Shown here: positions 1,356-35,125 of the stretch, piece after piece
Layout: each line of letters begins with the position of its first letter
How positions within the stretch are numbered: the first letter of the stretch is position 1
Assembly (NCBI GenBank): GCA_038062135.1
Contig: JBBTXT010000012.1
Coordinates: forward strand, 1 to 38,812
Direction of reading: 5' to 3'
Length of the DNA stretch: 38,812 bases
Source of the DNA: Patescibacteria group bacterium
GTDB taxonomy: Bacteria; Patescibacteriota; Minisyncoccia; 2-02-FULL-40-12; GWA2-44-9
Notes under the pieces: generated by a model
The model's input: only the letters and a program-made list of their open reading frames with translations
Database searches by the model: none
What the model was told of the DNA's origin: nothing
Program-made: the position numbers and the translations under genes

Positions 1356-3245
1356 ATGGCAAAAATACTTGGAATTGATTTGGGAACGACAAATTCGGCG
1401 ATGGCAATTATAGAGGCGGGCCAGCCACGCGTGCTGGAAAATAAAGAAGGCATGCGCACAACCCCGTCCATTGTTGCGGTGGGGAAAAACAGCGAACGTT
1501 ATGTCGGCGTGACTGCAAAGCGGCAAGCAGTTACGAATCCTGCGAATACGATTTTCTCCGCAAAGCGCTTAATTGGACGCCGATGGAACGACGAAGAGGT
1601 CCAGCGCGACCGCAAGCTCTTGCCATATGAAATAAAAGAGGGTGCACACGGCGATGTTGAAATTAAACTCGGCGATAAATGGCTCAAGCCGGCCGAAGTT
1701 GCGGCTATGGTTCTGCAAAAGCTAAAGCAGGATGCTGAAGATAAACTGGGTGAAAAGATTACCGAAGCGATCATTACCGTTCCGGCGTATTTTGACGACT
1801 CACAACGTAAAGCAACTAAGGATGCCGGAGAAATTGCCGGTCTCAATGTGAAGCGCGTTATTAATGAGCCGACGGCTGCCGCGCTCGCGTACGGCTTCAA
1901 TAAAAAGAAAGACGAACAGATTGTGGTGTATGACTTTGGTGGTGGAACGTTTGACGTGTCGGTGCTTGAAGTCTCCGAAGATACGATTGAGGTAAAAAGT
2001 ACCGGCGGCGATACACATCTTGGCGGTGATGACCTGGATCAGCGAATTATTAATTATCTTGCCGAAGAGTTTAAAAAAGAGCAGGGGATTGATGTCTCTA
2101 AAGATCAGCTTGCGATCCAACGCTTGAAAGATGCCGCAGAAAAAGCGAAGCATGAGTTGTCGTCGGTTATGCAGACCGAAGTAAACATCCCGTTCTTAAC
2201 TGCGGATGCATCCGGTCCAAAACACTTTGCGCTTAACTTCACACGAGCAAAGTTAGAAGACTTAGTTAGGGACTACATAGACAAATCGATTGATCTGACC
2301 AAGAAAACTGTTGAAGAAGCCGGATTCAAGCTTTCCGACATTGATGAAGTTATTCTTGTTGGTGGACAGACTCGTATGCCGGCAATGGTTGAGGCGGTCA
2401 AAAAACTATTCGGCAAAGAACCGCATAAAGACATCAACCCAGACGAAGTTGTAGCCATCGGCGCGGCAATCCAAGGCGGTATTATGCAGGGCGACGTGCG
2501 CGACGTTCTTTTGCTTGATGTAACGCCACTTTCTCTTGGTATTGAGACGCTCGGCCAGGTGATGACCAAGATGATTGAGAAGAACACCACTGTGCCGGTG
2601 TCTAAGTCACAGACCTTCTCAACGGCTGCGGATAACCAGCCGTCCGTTGAAATTCACGTACTCCAAGGTGAGCGTCCAATGGCGGCAGACAACAAAACCC
2701 TTGGCAGATTTATTCTAGATGGCATTCCACCAGCTCCGCGCGGCGTGCCGCAAGTTGAGGTTACCTTTGACATTGATGCCAACGGTATTTTGAACGTTAC
2801 TGCGAAAGACAAAGCTACTGGTAAGGCGCAATCGGTCCGCATTGAAGGGTCATCCGGTCTTACGGAAGACGAGAAAAAGCGCATGACTGAAGACGCAGAG
2901 AAGCATGCCGCCGAGGATGCCAAGAAAAAAGAACTCATTGATGCGCGCAATGCCGCCGAATCTCTAGCGTACATTTCTGAAAAGACTCTTAAAGATGCCG
3001 GAGAAAAAGTTTCGGCTGATGATAAAAAAGCCGTTGAAGAAAAAATTGAAGCAGTCCGCAAGTTGAAGGACAGTGAAGACGCGGACGCAATTAAAAAAGC
3101 AACCGAAGAACTCTCTACGGCGGTTCAAAAAGTCGGCCAGGCAATGTATGGTTCGGCAGGCTCACCACAAGCAGAATCAAGCCAGCAAAAGCCGCCAGAA
3201 CAGACCGTTGAGCAAGATCCTCACAAAGAGGAAGATAAAAAATAA
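1356..3245 (+). CDS. dnaK: Chaperone DnaK (Hsp70)
   Basis: [49 protein letters not shown]. Confidence 0.99.
3149..3167 (+). repeat. Short REP-like palindromic repeat in frame in the DnaK tail (GSAGSP)
   Basis: TGGT-TCGGCAGGCTC-ACCA; same TTCG..GCTCA core as 4414-4433. Confidence 0.5.
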
Positions 3246-3260
3246 TTTGGTTTTAGGACC

Positions 3261-3328
3261 ACACCAGCTCTCCTCGTCCCGTGGTCGCGCACACTGTATA
3301 GCGCCCACAAAACAAGGAGAGCTAGTGT
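3261..3328 (-). other. Long intergenic hairpin folding on the minus strand
   Basis: 24-bp arms 3261-3284 and 3305-3328; all 5 plus-strand mismatches are C.A (G-U on minus); inner GCGC/GCGC stem. Confidence 0.75.
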
Positions 3329-3347
3329 ATAAATGACGTAACCCCGT

Positions 3348-4145
3348 ATGCCTAAAAAGATTGTAATCCTGCTAGCTGTATTCGCCGCTTTCCTTGCCTT
3401 TTGGATTGCGGCGAATATTTGGTTAGATAATCCAGCCTCCGCACTAAATGATTATAGTCGTTGGATTGTTCCATTGGTGCTCATGATTGCATCCTCGGCC
3501 ATATTGGCGCTTGCGATTCTTCTTGTAAATAAAGATTGGAAATGGATTCTGGTATATTCTGCCGCCGTGATTTTACCAGGTCTCTTCGTTGTTGGATTCG
3601 GTAGCCTTACTGTTATCGGGGGCTTGGCGGGAATGGGAGCTTTGATTAGTGGAGCTGCTCAAAAAATCCGCAACGAATCGGAAACGCGCATACGGGTAAA
3701 CATTAATGCAATGATTGGTTCCGGCACCCGCTTCATTCTTGCCGGAGCAATCGTATTTTTATCGGTGGCGTATTACGCAAGCCCGGCGGTACAGATAAGC
3801 AAGGAGACGCGACAACTCCCTCCAACGATCATTGAAATGATCCAAGGGTTGACGCGTAGGCTAGTAGGCGATGAGTTGGCGATCTTGCCGGCAAAAGAGC
3901 GTGCGCAGGCCGAGAAAACAGTTGTTCGCGAAGTGCTAGATCAGATAAATGATCTTGCCGGACCGTACTTGAAGTTTTTGCCGTTTATCCTGGCAATTGG
4001 TTTATTCCTGCTTCTTCAGAGTTTGAACTTTATTTTTGCCTGGTTGGCCGGATTGATTGCGGCGGGAGTATTTTGGATTCTTATTAAAGTTAACTTTATT
4101 AAAATAGAAAAAGTGATGATAGAAGGCGAAAAGATTTCTCTCTAG
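3348..4145 (+). CDS. Hypothetical multi-pass membrane protein
   Basis: 265 aa with about 6-7 hydrophobic segments; stop is 1 nt from the dnaJ start. Confidence 0.85.
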
Positions 4146-31305: not shown

Positions 31306-32142
31306 ATGACCAAAGGAACTCGCAGGTTTGCATTCTACATTGCCGTTATTGTTTTCATCGGCGCCACCTATATAGCGATTTTATATGCCCAAGGCTACAA
31401 GTATAGCGCCCAGGAGCACCGCTTCATCAGAACCGGCGCGATTAGCCTGAATGCCAACGCCGACGCTAAGGTGTTTGTGGATGATGAACTTTCCGGAACA
31501 ACCTCGTTTTTAACCAACCGATTTAGTGTAGACGGCCTTCTGCCCGGCCAGTATTCAATTCGCCTTCAGCGCGACAACTACTCAAGCTGGCAAAAAGTCC
31601 CAACGGTGCAAGAGGGGTTTGTAACAGATTTTCCAAAAGTTTTGATTTTGCCTTTAGACGATGAAAACCTTGCCAAGCTCGCTAGCGAGGCGGCCGAAAT
31701 ATTTGCATCCAAGCCTACTCCAACGCCTACCTTAACCGTAAAACCGACCCCTACACCCAAGGCGACAATTAACCCCACCGCAACACCTTCTCCCACTCCA
31801 ACCGAACCTTTTGTTTTGAAAAATAAAGTCCTGACCTGGCAAGAGCAAGGCGGTGAACCGCAGGAATTAGCCAAAAATGTTGCTGGATTCATAGTCTCCG
31901 AAAGCAACAAAAAAATGGCCTGGTGGACATTTAATAACGAACTTTATGTAATGTGGCTTGCCGACACCGACTATCAGCCCGCCAAAAAGAAGGGCGATCG
32001 CGAACTGGTTACCCGCTTTGCAACTAGCATCAATGATATCGCCTGGTTCCGAGGTGATGATCAAGTAATCCTCTCATTCAAAACCGGCTACCGCATCGTA
32101 GAAATCGATACCCGCGGAGGCGTGAATATTATTAAGATCTAA
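31306..32142 (+). CDS. Membrane-anchored PEGA-like domain protein with Pro/Thr linker
   Basis: TM then YAQGY, TGAI, A.VFVD, LLPGQY.I.L....Y..W.K; PT linker; start probably ATG 31306. Confidence 0.8.
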   Translation: MTKGTRRFAFYIAVIVFIGATYIAILYAQGYKYSAQEHRFIRTGAISLNANADAKVFVDDELSGTTSFLTNRFSVDGLLPGQYSIRLQRDNYSSWQKVPTVQEGFVTDFPKVLILPLDDENLAKLASEAAEIFASKPTPTPTLTVKPTPTPKATINPTATPSPTPTEPFVLKNKVLTWQEQGGEPQELAKNVAGFIVSESNKKMAWWTFNNELYVMWLADTDYQPAKKKGDRELVTRFATSINDIAWFRGDDQVILSFKTGYRIVEIDTRGGVNIIKI

Positions 32143-32165
32143 CGGCTGGCTTGACTGACTTGGAC

Positions 32166-32238
32166 GGGGTCCTGCCCCTCCCACCCCATACGTGCTCAAA
32201 AGACTGCGCGCGTATGGGGTCCCCGTGAGGGCCACCCC
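32166..32238 (+). other. Irregular GC-rich hairpin between convergent genes at the island edge
   Basis: GGGGT..GCCCCTC..ACCCCATACGTGC / GCGCGTATGGGGT..GAGGGC.ACCCC. Confidence 0.6.
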
Positions 32239-32260
32239 TATGCGACCATAAAGTATGTTT

Positions 32261-32716
32261 CTAATCCTTCAAGGTGACTGTTAGGGGCGTACTATAAGTC
32301 TCAGTCAAACCCTTACTTTTAGGGTCTAACGCCTTAATGTTAAAGGAGTAGTCCCCTTCCTTCTGTATACCAAGAGCATTTATGTTGACAACAAAACGAT
32401 TACGCAACATACCCGAAGGAATAATCAACTCTTTCGTCATTTTGCTAACTTCCTTATTGTTAGAGTCATTAAAGCTTACTTCTGCAATAAACTTAATTTC
32501 GTTTTCAATAGAGCCCTTATCCCACAAAGTTACTAGTTCAAACTTTATGGGAACGATTTTATAACCTTTTTTATTTTCAGGAAGGCTGTTGAAAAATTCT
32601 CTCTTGATATTCAGTTGATCAGTTATCCCGAATAAGCTAATATTATTACTTTTTTGGTCAGTGCTGGTCCCAGAACAAAGAATAGCCCAACGTAATTTTA
32701 ACTTTTCTTTTAACAT
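32261..32716 (-). CDS. Predicted all-beta hypothetical protein (DUF6941-like by recall), third gene of the TA operon
   Basis: WAILC....D..SNNISLFGI.DQL; alternating beta pattern; EGDYSFNI; 4 nt from the antitoxin stop. Confidence 0.7.
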   Translation of the reverse strand: MLKEKLKLRWAILCSGTSTDQKSNNISLFGITDQLNIKREFFNSLPENKKGYKIVPIKFELVTLWDKGSIENEIKFIAEVSFNDSNNKEVSKMTKELIIPSGMLRNRFVVNINALGIQKEGDYSFNIKALDPKSKGLTETYSTPLTVTLKD

Positions 32717-32720
32717 GTTT

Positions 32721-33143
32721 TTAATGAGTTAAATAATCTGATGATGAGTGAAGCCACGGCACTTCTTGGGAGTTATCAAGTGTTGATAATGCCAGATCAC
32801 TATACGAACTTTCGACAGCGGTATTGTTTACAGTAAGCTTACTATCTAAACAACCTAGTGTAGGGGCTATTGCCTCTGTTTTCAACGCCTTAGAAATTCT
32901 TTCAAACATTGCAAGACTGTCAATCTTGCCACGTTCTATGCGCGCTATATTTGGTTGACTAGTCCCAATAAGATCAGCGAGTTCTTCTTGTGTATAACCC
33001 TTCAAAATACGTGCTTTTGCCACATTGCGACCGGTTTGATATCGTATAGAAGGGTTTTCATATAGCTCACGAAAAGCCTCGTCTTGCATCAATTCTTCGT
33101 GCAACTCTTCTGGTGTTACAAATATTAACTTTTTCTTTTTCAT
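32721..33143 (-). CDS. XRE/HTH antitoxin (HigA-like) with a C-terminal extension of about 45 aa
   Basis: ARILKGYTQEELADLIGTSQPNIARIERG; low-complexity S/T/D/N tail. Confidence 0.85.
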   Translation of the reverse strand: MKKKKLIFVTPEELHEELMQDEAFRELYENPSIRYQTGRNVAKARILKGYTQEELADLIGTSQPNIARIERGKIDSLAMFERISKALKTEAIAPTLGCLDSKLTVNNTAVESSYSDLALSTLDNSQEVPWLHSSSDYLTH

Positions 33144-33149
33144 ATGTTT

Positions 33150-33467
33150 TTATGTTTTCAAATTTTGGATCTCTCTGGCGATATTTTCCGATTTCTTAAA
33201 CTCTCTCTGTTCCTGGTTCAAATCTTTTTTTATGAACACCTTTACGAGGTATACTGTCTCATCCTTGACCGTAGTAACCAATCTGTATCTACCCTGTCTT
33301 GTTTTATAAATATCATCACATGATCTTATGGGTTTTAGACAATGTGGAATTAACTGCTCCCGACTCTGTCCCCGAATATCTTCTATGAGATCTTTAAGAA
33401 GCCTTTGGTTTTTGGCATCCTGACTTATTATAAATTCCGAAGCCTCTTTTAATAATATAACTCTCAT
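33150..33467 (-). CDS. RelE/HigB (Gp49-like) toxin
   Basis: 105 aa; LKPI....IYKTR.GRYRL; YLVKVFIKK...EF..S..IA; toxin-first gene order. Confidence 0.8.
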   Translation of the reverse strand: MRVILLKEASEFIISQDAKNQRLLKDLIEDIRGQSREQLIPHCLKPIRSCDDIYKTRQGRYRLVTTVKDETVYLVKVFIKKDLNQEQREFKKSENIAREIQNLKT

Positions 33468-33489
33468 TTAGCGTATGTGTATCCATAGA

Positions 33490-33528
33490 ATATATCTTAT
33501 ATGATATATCAACGGTTTTAAATGTCAA
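33490..33528 (-). promoter_or_regulatory. TA operon promoter with palindromic operator
   Basis: Minus strand TTGACA-16-TATCAT; ATATATC-N6-GATATAT (33490-33509) overlaps the -10 and start site. Confidence 0.7.
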
Positions 33529-33557
33529 TAGTCCTAATACTTTTATTATACTCTTCT

Positions 33558-33619
33558 CAAAAATAAAAAAGTGCCTGGGAGCGCGACGCGTTCTGTATCG
33601 CGTGCGCTCACCAGGCATC
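33558..33619 (-). terminator. Bulged GC hairpin with T tract (homologous to 19555-19609)
   Basis: Minus strand GAT-GCCTGG-T-GAGCGC-ACGCG..CGCGT-c-GCGCTC-CCAGGC-ACTTTTTTATTTTT. Confidence 0.78.
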
Positions 33620-33621
33620 TC

Positions 33622-33975
33622 TCACTCGAAGGTGGCTCCGTGGCGAGTCAGCTTGAAGACCGAGCCTGTCTTCATCGCTTCCCTGACATCCTGCGCGTGG
33701 ATGATGATCGTCTCGGTCGGGGCTAGCGGATCGTCCGCGGGGGTGACCAAACAGGAGGTGGCGTACTCGTTGACCTTGTTGATCTTGCAGCCCCACACTC
33801 GGTAGCTCATCCCTTTTTCGCCAGGCTTGGCCTTACCGAGGCCGTAACGGAAGCCCTCGTCGTAGGCGGCCTTCTGGGCACCGCCGAGGTCGAAGCGACC
33901 GGTCGTCATGCAACCCGCCAGGAAGCCGAGAACGATCGAAGTGACCACCAGAATGTTCAGAACAGTCTTGTTCAC
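33622..33975 (-). CDS. Small putative lipoprotein (GC-rich mini-cassette 3)
   Basis: 117 aa; GTG start with SD AAGGGGGA; signal peptide ending in lipobox LAGC; YDEGFRYG motif. Confidence 0.78.
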   Translation of the reverse strand: MNKTVLNILVVTSIVLGFLAGCMTTGRFDLGGAQKAAYDEGFRYGLGKAKPGEKGMSYRVWGCKINKVNEYATSCLVTPADDPLAPTETIIIHAQDVREAMKTGSVFKLTRHGATFE

Positions 33976-33996
33976 AACATCCCCCTTGAACTACTG

Positions 33997-34112
33997 CTCG
34001 GTATGTTGCCGAGACATGGGAAAAACAACCTAATATTCAGATTGTCTTTCCAGTATCTCGGAGTTCTTAATGATCTTTCAGTATTATAACATTTATAGTG
34101 TACTTTTGTCAA
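33997..34112 (-). promoter_or_regulatory. Consensus promoter and structured 5' leader of mini-cassette 3
   Basis: TTGACA (34107-34112), 18 nt, TGtTATAAT (34083-34088); leader hairpin 34009-34061 with 4 G-U pairs. Confidence 0.72.
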
Positions 34113-34117
34113 ACAAG

Positions 34118-34143
34118 CAAAAAGCCCCAAAAGGGGCTTTTTG
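34118..34143 (-). terminator. Intrinsic terminator of the ribosomal protein operon
   Basis: CAAAAAGCCCC-aaaa-GGGGCTTTTTG, 14 nt after the rpsI stop. Confidence 0.88.
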
Positions 34144-34157
34144 TAGATTAGTAGGGT

Positions 34158-34781
34158 TTAACGCTTTGACCAGCGGCCCATCTTACGGGCTTTTTTATGG
34201 CCGTACTTGCGGCGCTCTTTGACGCGCGGATCGCGGGTCAGGAGGTTTGATTTCTTGAGCTTCTTTCGGAAATTACCGTCAAATTTTTCAAGGGTGCGGG
34301 CAAGACCGTGGACTACGGCTCTGGCTTGGCCGGCCAAACCGCCGCCACGGACGATAACCGAAGCCTTAAAGCGGTTGAGCGATTTGAGTTTACGGAACGG
34401 AGTTTCAACCTGGGCAATCAAAGCAGAATCCTGGAAGTAGTCCTGATAGTCCTTGCCGTTGATGGTTAAGAGGGCTTTATCGTTTTTGAGTTCGTCGGTT
34501 GATTTGCGGGTTGAGAGACGGACGCGGGCGACGGATTCCTTTCGGCGGCCGACGGCCGGGTAATACTTTTCTTTAGCTCCCGCTTCAGCTTTTTCATCAA
34601 AGCGCTCTTCCGGCGGAGTGTAGTCGTCGCTATCTGCGGTTTCTTGCGGGACAACTGGCTCGGCTAAAACAGTTGGCTTTGCCAACTGTTTGCCTAAAGT
34701 TTCACGTCGCAAAACTTTTAGGGACACAACCTTTTCAATAGCTGGTTCTGGTTTTAATTTTGTTTTCGGCGTTCGGGGCAT
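34158..34781 (-). CDS. rpsI: 30S ribosomal protein S9 with long N-terminal extension
   Basis: GRRKESVARV, GGGLAGQA, LTRDPRVKERRKYG..KARK...WSKR. Confidence 0.96.
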   Translation of the reverse strand: MPRTPKTKLKPEPAIEKVVSLKVLRRETLGKQLAKPTVLAEPVVPQETADSDDYTPPEERFDEKAEAGAKEKYYPAVGRRKESVARVRLSTRKSTDELKNDKALLTINGKDYQDYFQDSALIAQVETPFRKLKSLNRFKASVIVRGGGLAGQARAVVHGLARTLEKFDGNFRKKLKKSNLLTRDPRVKERRKYGHKKARKMGRWSKR

Positions 34782-34783
34782 AA

Positions 34784-35125
34784 TTATTTAAATTTAAGAT
34801 TCTTAATGATAACGTCGCGGGTGCGATTATCCGGAAGCATGCGATACACGGTGTGCCGGATTACTTCTTTTGGATTCTTCTTCCACAACTCTCCAAGGTT
34901 GCGGTTCTTCATACCGCCTGGGTAGCCGGAGTAATGGTGGTATGTTTTCTGTTCCAGCTTGAGACCAGTGAACTTAATCTTATTAATATTTGTTACTTCC
35001 ACGATGATTTGCGGGGTAATGCGGGGCTCGTAGGTAGCCTTATGCTTGCCACGAAGCATGGTCGCAATCCGGCTTGCGAGCCGGCCGAGCGATTGATCAA
35101 TTGCGTCGATTTGAAAAGTTTCCAT
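34784..35125 (-). CDS. rplM: 50S ribosomal protein L13 (short)
   Basis: IDA....LGRLASRIA..LRGKHK..Y.P, HYSGYPGG, MLP.N. Confidence 0.96.
   Translation of the reverse strand: METFQIDAIDQSLGRLASRIATMLRGKHKATYEPRITPQIIVEVTNINKIKFTGLKLEQKTYHHYSGYPGGMKNRNLGELWKKNPKEVIRHTVYRMLPDNRTRDVIIKNLKFK

Follow-up and report, generated by a model that had tools for sequence, protein, structure and literature searches.

A contig of 38,812 nucleotides (nt) from a Patescibacteria group bacterium (GenBank assembly GCA_038062135.1, contig JBBTXT010000012.1; this whole stretch is called the window below) carries a three-gene toxin-antitoxin (TA) module. The third gene encodes a protein that we call P3. The main finding is that P3 genes are linked, in a conserved way, to antitoxins of several families that bear a C-terminal tail. 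P3 is very probably the functional partner of that tail. In its layout the module resembles the toxin-antitoxin-chaperone (TAC) systems, where the third gene encodes SecB or a relative; here, by its predicted structure, the third protein is something else.

The three genes are minus-strand open reading frames (ORFs) standing head to tail, and they encode 105, 140 and 151 amino acids (aa) in the order toxin, antitoxin, P3. The toxin and antitoxin genes meet at TAA-AAACAT-ATG, a spacer of 6 nt. The antitoxin and P3 genes meet at TAA-AAAC-ATG, a spacer of 4 nt. All are co-directional and tightly linked, with one promoter-like site upstream.

33150..33467, minus strand: toxin, 105 aa, divergent Gp49/HigB-type with a RelE/ParE fold (profile alignment, fold match)
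32721-33143, minus strand: antitoxin, 140 aa (ORF, HTH_3)
32877..33143, minus strand: N-terminal part of the antitoxin with an XRE helix-turn-helix (HTH), residues 1-89 (HTH_3)
32721..32876, minus strand: C-terminal tail of the antitoxin, residues 90-140 plus stop codon (polar, 3 aromatics)
32261..32716, minus strand: P3, 151 aa, all-beta immunoglobulin (Ig)-like sandwich, distant relative of DUF6941, proposed tail-binding third component (HMMER, AlphaFold, structure searches)

Linkage of P3 to tail-bearing antitoxins

When 401 sampled genomes of the phylum were searched with a profile, P3 was matched in eight, one of them being the window's own. Four of the other matches are strong (E<=2.3e-20; genomes G159, G169, G264 and G109). 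All four show the same arrangement, in which P3 follows an HTH_3 antitoxin of 139-148 aa and this in turn follows a Gp49 toxin (E 1.4e-5 to 9.6e-15); the genes overlap or are separated by gaps of 2-12 nt. The eighth match (L008) is weak and lies inside a 354-aa frame; the remaining two, L007 and L009, are canonical DUF6941 proteins that are considered below.

Metagenome contigs were then scanned with a narrow P3 alignment. Here, the seed was a P3 peptide motif alone, so that the scan was blind to neighboring genes. It delivered 32 loci. P3 lies at the contig edge in four of these (L022, L024, L027, L037), and four more are duplicates, as judged by identical ORF translations (L020=L010, L026=L025, L032=L031, L034=L033; L020 alone of these was Pfam-scanned). 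This leaves 24 distinct readable loci. In 19 of them an antitoxin gene lies immediately upstream of P3: 13 are HTH_3, five DUF2283, and one HicB. The gap between antitoxin and P3 in this recurrent arrangement is again 2-12 nt, or the genes overlap. The initial annotation of the window, made by a model from the letters alone, had asked whether homologs of P3 sit behind tail-extended antitoxins; in the four strong genome matches and in these 19 loci, they do.

The gene before the antitoxin is a Gp49 toxin at E<=1e-3 in seven loci and, more weakly, in two others (E 0.0012 and 0.0035). It is a HigB_toxin (PF09907, E 2e-29) in L035, a DUF4258 protein in four of the five DUF2283 loci, and a weak HicA match (E 0.0014) in L040. 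In L028 and L016 the ORF at this position is of toxin size and has no Pfam match, and no toxin ORF was recognized in L011 or L012.

Every P3-linked antitoxin that was measured (24 of 24) carries 39-118 residues after its Pfam domain. Those with an HTH are 132-232 aa long (three starts are uncertain), and those with DUF2283 have 39-63 residues following the domain. The antitoxin of the window has 51, and two-gene relatives lack such an extension. This last statement comes from controls drawn from the same 401 genomes, where Gp49 toxins occur in 62 genomes and DUF2283 in 25. Among the 30 best Gp49 loci, none matched the P3 profile, and 27 of these loci hold 28 downstream ORFs of 89-117 aa, judged as antitoxins by length and by eye. 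P3 was likewise absent from all 30 DUF2283 control loci, with positive controls detected in three of three cases; here the domain is followed by 4-33 residues in 29 loci and by 71 in the other (median 20.5).

The two-gene Gp49/HigB-XRE HigA modules share with the window a toxin fold and family, an HTH_3 antitoxin, the toxin-first order, and a probable auto-repression through a palindrome. They lack a third gene, which in the window is P3, and their antitoxin ORFs are of 89-117 aa rather than 140 aa.

P3 is modular with respect to its partners. At L031 (1437-4172), two complete three-gene modules stand in tandem, each with its own P3. One reads DUF4258, DUF2283 (tailed), P3; the other reads Gp49-like toxin (129 aa), HTH antitoxin (141 aa, tailed), P3. 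In a tree of P3 sequences, the P3 of L010, whose partner is an HTH antitoxin, and the P3 of L023, whose partner is DUF2283, are sisters with 99/98 support.

Two side observations belong with these loci. Just upstream of the DUF4258-DUF2283-P3 module of L023 lies a gene for a HicB-like antitoxin (2047-2292, E 1.5e-8), so that TA genes are clustered there. Further, the viral contigs searched gave one P3 locus (L073), with a different partner. There (1848-3441) and in L041 (230-1185), P3 follows one of two homologous proteins of 216-219 aa (pairwise E 2e-10) that belong to no Pfam family and have a long polar tail; in L073, a DUF7689/CHAP-like gene precedes this partner. The two may represent a further, undescribed pairing.

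The three proteins

P3 is well modeled by AlphaFold from an alignment of 87 rows, with a predicted local distance difference test (pLDDT) score of 94.6 and almost all residues in strands. The top Foldseek matches of the model are RhoGDI, PDE6-delta, and the carbohydrate-binding domain of Wzt (E 1.5e-4 to 1e-3; template modeling (TM) scores of 0.45-0.56). VIA-align, which is independent of Foldseek, gives Z values of about 10-10.5 for Wzt and for Ig-like domains of GH2 enzymes, and of 8.8 for RhoGDI; SecB is not among the matches listed. In a Pfam search taken down to E 1, P3 matched DUF6941 only, and not SecB (PF02556). By these models, then, P3 is a common Ig-like sandwich and is not SecB. 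The initial annotation had described an all-beta, non-SecB, DUF6941/Ig-like third protein, which is what the Pfam search, the all-strand model, and the Ig-like structural matches indicate.

RhoGDI and PDE6-delta are among the closest known counterparts of P3. These sandwiches hold or shield the C-terminal tails of partner GTPases, and they are similar in size to P3 as well as leading its Foldseek list. The likeness is limited to a common Ig-like fold, of course; RhoGDI scores below Wzt and GH2 by VIA-align, and P3 has neither a sequence relation to these proteins nor a sign of lipid binding.

The match of P3 to DUF6941 (PF22091; E 9.3e-5) reaches 23.2 bits, under the cut-off of 27 bits. DUF6941 is also matched at E<=1e-3 by 42 of the 87 aligned relatives of P3, and Atlas models of DUF6941 clusters superpose on the Atlas model of P3 with TM scores of 0.71-0.85, the 0.71 being for a cluster with 93% DUF6941 members (all of these being predicted models). 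Because of these three results, P3 is placed as a divergent branch of DUF6941 or as its sister, as far as profiles and predicted models indicate. The canonical members at L007 and L009 differ from P3 in not lying beside TA pairs. L009 (474-3348) has its DUF6941 gene directly after a gene for a ClpP-like, SDH-type serine protease (PF01972, E 8.8e-15), with a large methyltransferase-like ORF after it. From this context, one might suspect that the wider family works with proteases or in defense islands.

Relatives of P3 required an exhaustive HMMER search, since a word-based homology search found only P3 itself. At E<=1e-3 the exhaustive search gave 632 representatives, of which 83 reach E<=1e-10, and almost all have lengths of 135-175 aa; a representative here is a cluster at 50% identity, and there are about 630 of these. 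Positions W10, C14, D20, N24, W65, P85, R107, G121, and Y123 are near-invariant; of these, D20, N24, R107, and Y123 lie at the surface. Three giant "relatives" of 2000-3000 aa (P0006, P0047, P0117) proved to be cadherin-like Ig/RTX repeats in which many small scores are summed, and they were left out of the P3 alignments. The N-terminus of P3 might be read as that of a lipoprotein. This reading was rejected, as residues 6-14 form a confident strand in which W10 and C14 are near-invariant fold positions. Other searches with P3 gave no match in PADLOC, none in PHROGs below E 0.17, a chance-level match only in NCBIfam, and nothing meaningful by sequence in the PDB (best E 0.26).

The toxin is only weakly matched in Pfam (ParE_toxin, E 0.025; Gp49, PF05973, E 0.047 and 14.2 bits, under the cut-off of 23.9 bits), and a search of the PDB by sequence gave nothing meaningful. 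In PHROGs it matches phrog_1213, "RelE-like toxin," at E 4.4e-5. It can, moreover, be aligned with the Gp49 toxins of related loci, and hhalign against a profile of 11 of these gives a probability of 96.4% (E 1.3e-9). Its AlphaFold model (pLDDT 93.4) has HigB/RelE toxins as its best PDB matches (6af4_C, E 7.9e-5, TM 0.69). Because the Gp49 alignment, the hhalign result, and the fold match agree, the identity of the protein as a HigB/Gp49-type toxin with a RelE fold can be regarded, by profile and by model, as settled. This family membership, in turn, makes it most likely by analogy that the toxin is a ribosome-dependent mRNA nuclease.

The antitoxin carries an HTH_3 domain (PF01381) at residues 42-89, with E 1e-10 and 41.9 bits against a cut-off of 23. 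The tail that follows has 51 residues, of which 49% are S, T, N, Q, D, or E and three are aromatic. It is probably disordered and is a candidate element for recognition by P3, that is, for "addiction." A word-based homology search with the antitoxin found the antitoxin itself only. For both TA proteins the initial annotation, which had called a RelE/HigB-like toxin and an XRE antitoxin with an S/T/D/N-rich tail, read the sequence correctly.

The end of the tail has some likeness, judged by eye, to the 13-residue chaperone-addiction (ChAD) core of mycobacteria: Glu-Val-Pro, Trp, Ser-Ser, and Tyr occur in the same order, with the spacing from Trp to Tyr longer by one. The annotation had quoted the M. 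tuberculosis HigA1 13-mer, and did so letter for letter, as the available text of PMC6377645 confirms. However, the tails of homologous modules have a very different appearance, and the protein proposed to bind the tail is not SecB. The likeness is therefore treated as a coincidence, or as convergence on a short aromatic motif.

A different motif is a candidate for recognition. Pro-Pro-x-Phe-x-(Phe/Leu/Cys) stands right after the HTH in eight of 17 P3-linked HTH antitoxins (L003, L005, L011, L015, L021, L025, L029, and L033), and in none of the control antitoxin ORFs.

A proposed holder for the tail, and its rivals

The model for what P3 might do comes from the SecB-type TAC systems, namely HigB1-HigA1-SecB(TA) of M. 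tuberculosis and HigBAC, MqsRAC, and CmdTAC of E. coli. As described in the available text of two sources (PMC6377645; bioRxiv 10.1101/2024.02.24.581848), the antitoxin in these systems ends in a ChAD, a disordered, aromatic, and variable segment that destabilizes the antitoxin unless a SecB-like chaperone holds it. Removing the ChAD abolishes the dependence on the chaperone, and a ChAD can be grafted. For HigBAC of E. coli, the same text describes a phage tail protein that triggers the toxin by competing with the ChAD for binding to the chaperone.

The module in the window is like these systems in four respects. It has the toxin-antitoxin-third gene order. Its toxin is of the Gp49/HigB1 family, HigB1 of the mycobacterial TAC being assigned to PF_gp49 in the part of PMC11980606 that is available. 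Its antitoxin is extended at the C-terminus by a variable segment not present in two-gene relatives. Finally, its third gene is common to several TA families, here HigBA, HicAB, and DUF4258-DUF2283. It is unlike them in its third protein, which is a DUF6941-related Ig-like sandwich and not the alpha/beta tetramer of SecB. Further, a search for SecB (PF02556) detected the positive control genomes and no match in any of the 401 sampled genomes of this phylum, and it was negative as well for the genome to which the window belongs (89.6% complete). Chaperone action by P3 is proposed by analogy.

P3 is taken as the partner of the tail because these features recur together: the gene order, the toxin family, a tail present only with P3, and the sharing of the third gene across TA families. 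Somewhat less firmly, we favor the view that P3 binds and stabilizes the tail-bearing antitoxin much as a TAC chaperone does, making the module a SecB-independent analog of TAC. Here, the XRE antitoxin would neutralize the HigB/Gp49-type toxin, and would probably repress the sole promoter through a palindrome at its -10 hexamer. P3 would bind the tail of about 50 residues and thus control the stability or solubility of the antitoxin, presumably in the stabilizing direction. The module would then depend on P3 as a SecB-type TAC depends on its chaperone. Should P3 be titrated away, for example by a phage protein, the toxin would be freed. A role in phage defense is, by this analogy, plausible. 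The initial annotation had offered a TAC-like reading of the chaperone or sensor type. The linkage survey and the tail controls support that reading; that P3 contacts the tail is what we infer from them. A prediction of the complex between P3 (87-row alignment) and antitoxin residues 91-140, run without controls, gave a score of 0.29 against a mark of 0.32, which weighs neither way.

Several observations weigh against this reading. The window's own toxin and P3 both fall under their Pfam cut-offs, and the tail in the window does not begin with Pro-Pro-x-Phe-x-Phe. No motif is common to the tails across all loci. A recognizable antitoxin is absent upstream of P3 in five of the 24 loci (L019, L036, L038, L039, and L041). 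The P3 tree is poorly resolved, with 18 of its 29 inner branches open, and the antitoxin ORFs of the Gp49 controls were assessed by length and by eye. Last, because the canonical DUF6941 proteins of L007 (E 2.4e-12) and L009 (E 1.3e-18) sit in other contexts, the DUF6941-type fold is not reserved for TA modules.

In the main rival, the contact between tail and P3 is retained with its sign reversed. Here, P3 would read the tail as a degron, serving as an adaptor or sensor for a protease or as a displacer of the antitoxin, and would activate the toxin. The linkage of tail and P3 fits this as well as it fits a chaperone, and the protease gene in front of the DUF6941 gene of L009 lends it some color. 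However, L009 is a single locus from the canonical DUF6941 branch, not from the branch linked with TA pairs. Among the ORFs listed at the TA-linked loci examined, there is no protease gene. A toxin activator that is constitutive and co-transcribed would also be costly, unless it were itself regulated. We consider a degron reader unlikely. P3 might instead act apart from the tail, as a second neutralizer on the toxin or as a structural or co-repressor subunit, with the tails being linkers. Three co-transcribed genes with one toxin are, of course, also found in HipBST, PaaR-PaaA-ParE, and omega-epsilon-zeta. The extra gene of the latter two is a DNA-binding regulator or a piece of a split toxin or antitoxin. 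That of HipBST is likewise a regulator or of a split antitoxin type, in the available text of PMC9325769 and PMC10627512, and this speaks for an action apart from the tail. P3 is neither a DNA-binding regulator nor a split piece, and no DNA-binding fold is seen in its model. Further, it is found with at least four toxin families (Gp49, HigB_toxin, DUF4258, HicA-like) and three unrelated antitoxin folds, whose sole common feature is the added tail, while Gp49-HTH modules of two genes are complete in its absence (P3 in 0 of 30). These points make action apart from the tail quite improbable.

The remaining alternatives set the partnership aside. P3 could be an unrelated passenger that happens to lie behind a HigBA pair in an island, and its lack of a Pfam match above cut-off, of a PADLOC match, and of word-search relatives would suit a passenger. 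A chance neighbor, however, would hardly recur in four of four strong genome matches and 19 of 24 metagenome loci with overlaps or gaps of 2-12 nt, the gap here being 4 nt; this explanation is very improbable. The idea that the module is an ordinary SecB-type TAC with a divergent chaperone fares worst, and its chance is close to nil. In its favor are a gene order as in the mycobacterial TAC and a tail whose end is similar to the mycobacterial ChAD. Conversely, P3 lacks a SecB match in Pfam down to E 1, its all-beta model is without the long helices of SecB, its best structural matches are Wzt, GH2 Ig-like domains, and RhoGDI/PDE6D, and the phylum sample is without SecB (0 of 401).

The island, and what the module would mean

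Four further features frame the module.

33501..33528, minus strand: sigma-70-like promoter, TTGACA-16 nt-TATCAT (11/12 matches, best site in the region)
33490..33509, no strand: palindrome of 10+10 nt overlapping the -10 hexamer (arms 33490-33499 and 33500-33509, 90% complementary)
32183..32220, no strand: inverted repeat with 16-nt arms and a 6 nt loop, 88% complementary, between the convergent P3 gene and a gene of 281 aa
32240..33560, no strand: low-GC island with the TA-P3 module (GC profile, comparison with genome G241, contigs of other runs)

The end of the -10 hexamer lies 33 nt from the ATG of the toxin gene. A promoter scan of the region counted 10 sites where shuffled sequences had 3.8 +/- 2.2. 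The palindrome is a candidate operator for the HTH antitoxin. The inverted repeat at 32183-32220 is a possible two-way terminator; a terminator scan did not call it, for want of a run of T. The initial annotation had seen an AT-rich island with three tightly coupled genes, one TTGACA/TATCAT promoter, and a palindromic operator. The ORFs, the 6 and 4 nt junctions, and a guanine-plus-cytosine (GC) fraction of 0.31-0.42 agree with the first of these, and the promoter is the top site of the region. As for the last, the palindrome is there, and its role as an operator is a proposal.

The source genome is very small, with 434 kb in 29 contigs, and the runs that contain this stretch are labeled as groundwater metagenome; among the seven listed, none is an RNA run. 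The low GC fraction extends over about 32300-33650; the flanks on both sides have 0.47-0.52. In G241, the one genome of the same family that was compared, mreB, rpsI, rplM, and a 298-aa ortholog of the 281-aa gene (46% identity) are conserved. There, 588 nt separate this ortholog from rpsI, where the window has 2015 nt, and the two enclose no TA or P3 gene. By this sequence comparison, the TA-P3 island is a small insertion.

An assembly artifact was considered as a source of the island. It is ruled out because contigs from other runs bridge both island junctions with 0 differences. In one run (X2), a single piece covers 32070-32947 and so spans the end of the 281-aa gene, all of P3, and part of the antitoxin gene. 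In another (X3), a single piece covers 32898-34800, from the antitoxin gene through the toxin gene, the promoter, and the next ORF into rpsI. In X4, which comes from a second study, separate pieces cover P3, the toxin, and the promoter.

An ORF of 117 aa (33622-33975, minus strand) is located between the TA island and rpsI; its GC content is 62%, amid surroundings of 47-52%. Its N-terminus resembles a lipoprotein signal, it has no Pfam match, and it is absent from the same spot in G241. It may be a second foreign insertion.

A literature search, with subscription papers and the supplements of the bioRxiv TAC paper outside it, found no description of this P3-TA module. It also found no paper naming DUF6941, none naming both DUF2283 and DUF4258, and nothing relevant on non-SecB TAC-like chaperones, on beta-sandwich third genes alongside a C-terminally extended HigA, or on tripartite TA chaperones in Patescibacteria. 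In the available text of PMC11980606, DUF4258 toxins are called undescribed. The earlier two-gene NetFlax screen of the TAC authors ignored toxin-like and antitoxin-like genes in longer conserved neighborhoods, according to the accessible part of bioRxiv 10.1101/2024.02.24.581848. On this basis, what is new here is TAC logic with a different third protein.

A bolder hypothesis can be framed, although we lean slightly against it for now. Here, the widespread P3-type family of small Ig-like proteins, with its approximately 630 clusters, would be a second and evolutionarily independent addiction chaperone. It would hold the disordered tails of HigA, DUF2283, HicB, and other antitoxins, would be exchanged as a module between TA families, would double, as SecB(TA) does, as a sensor titrated by phage proteins, and would provide TAC defense to lineages that lack SecB.

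In TAC systems the chaperone is the sensor, and this explains how some TA modules sense phage. If P3 does the same, the design of a tail plus its holder would have evolved at least twice, and the space to be searched for three-part TA defense systems would be wider. Part of the DUF6941 assemblage would gain its first function, as would the little-studied DUF4258-DUF2283 pair. Under the bolder hypothesis, lineages without SecB, such as this ultra-small groundwater bacterium, would have a form of TAC defense of their own.

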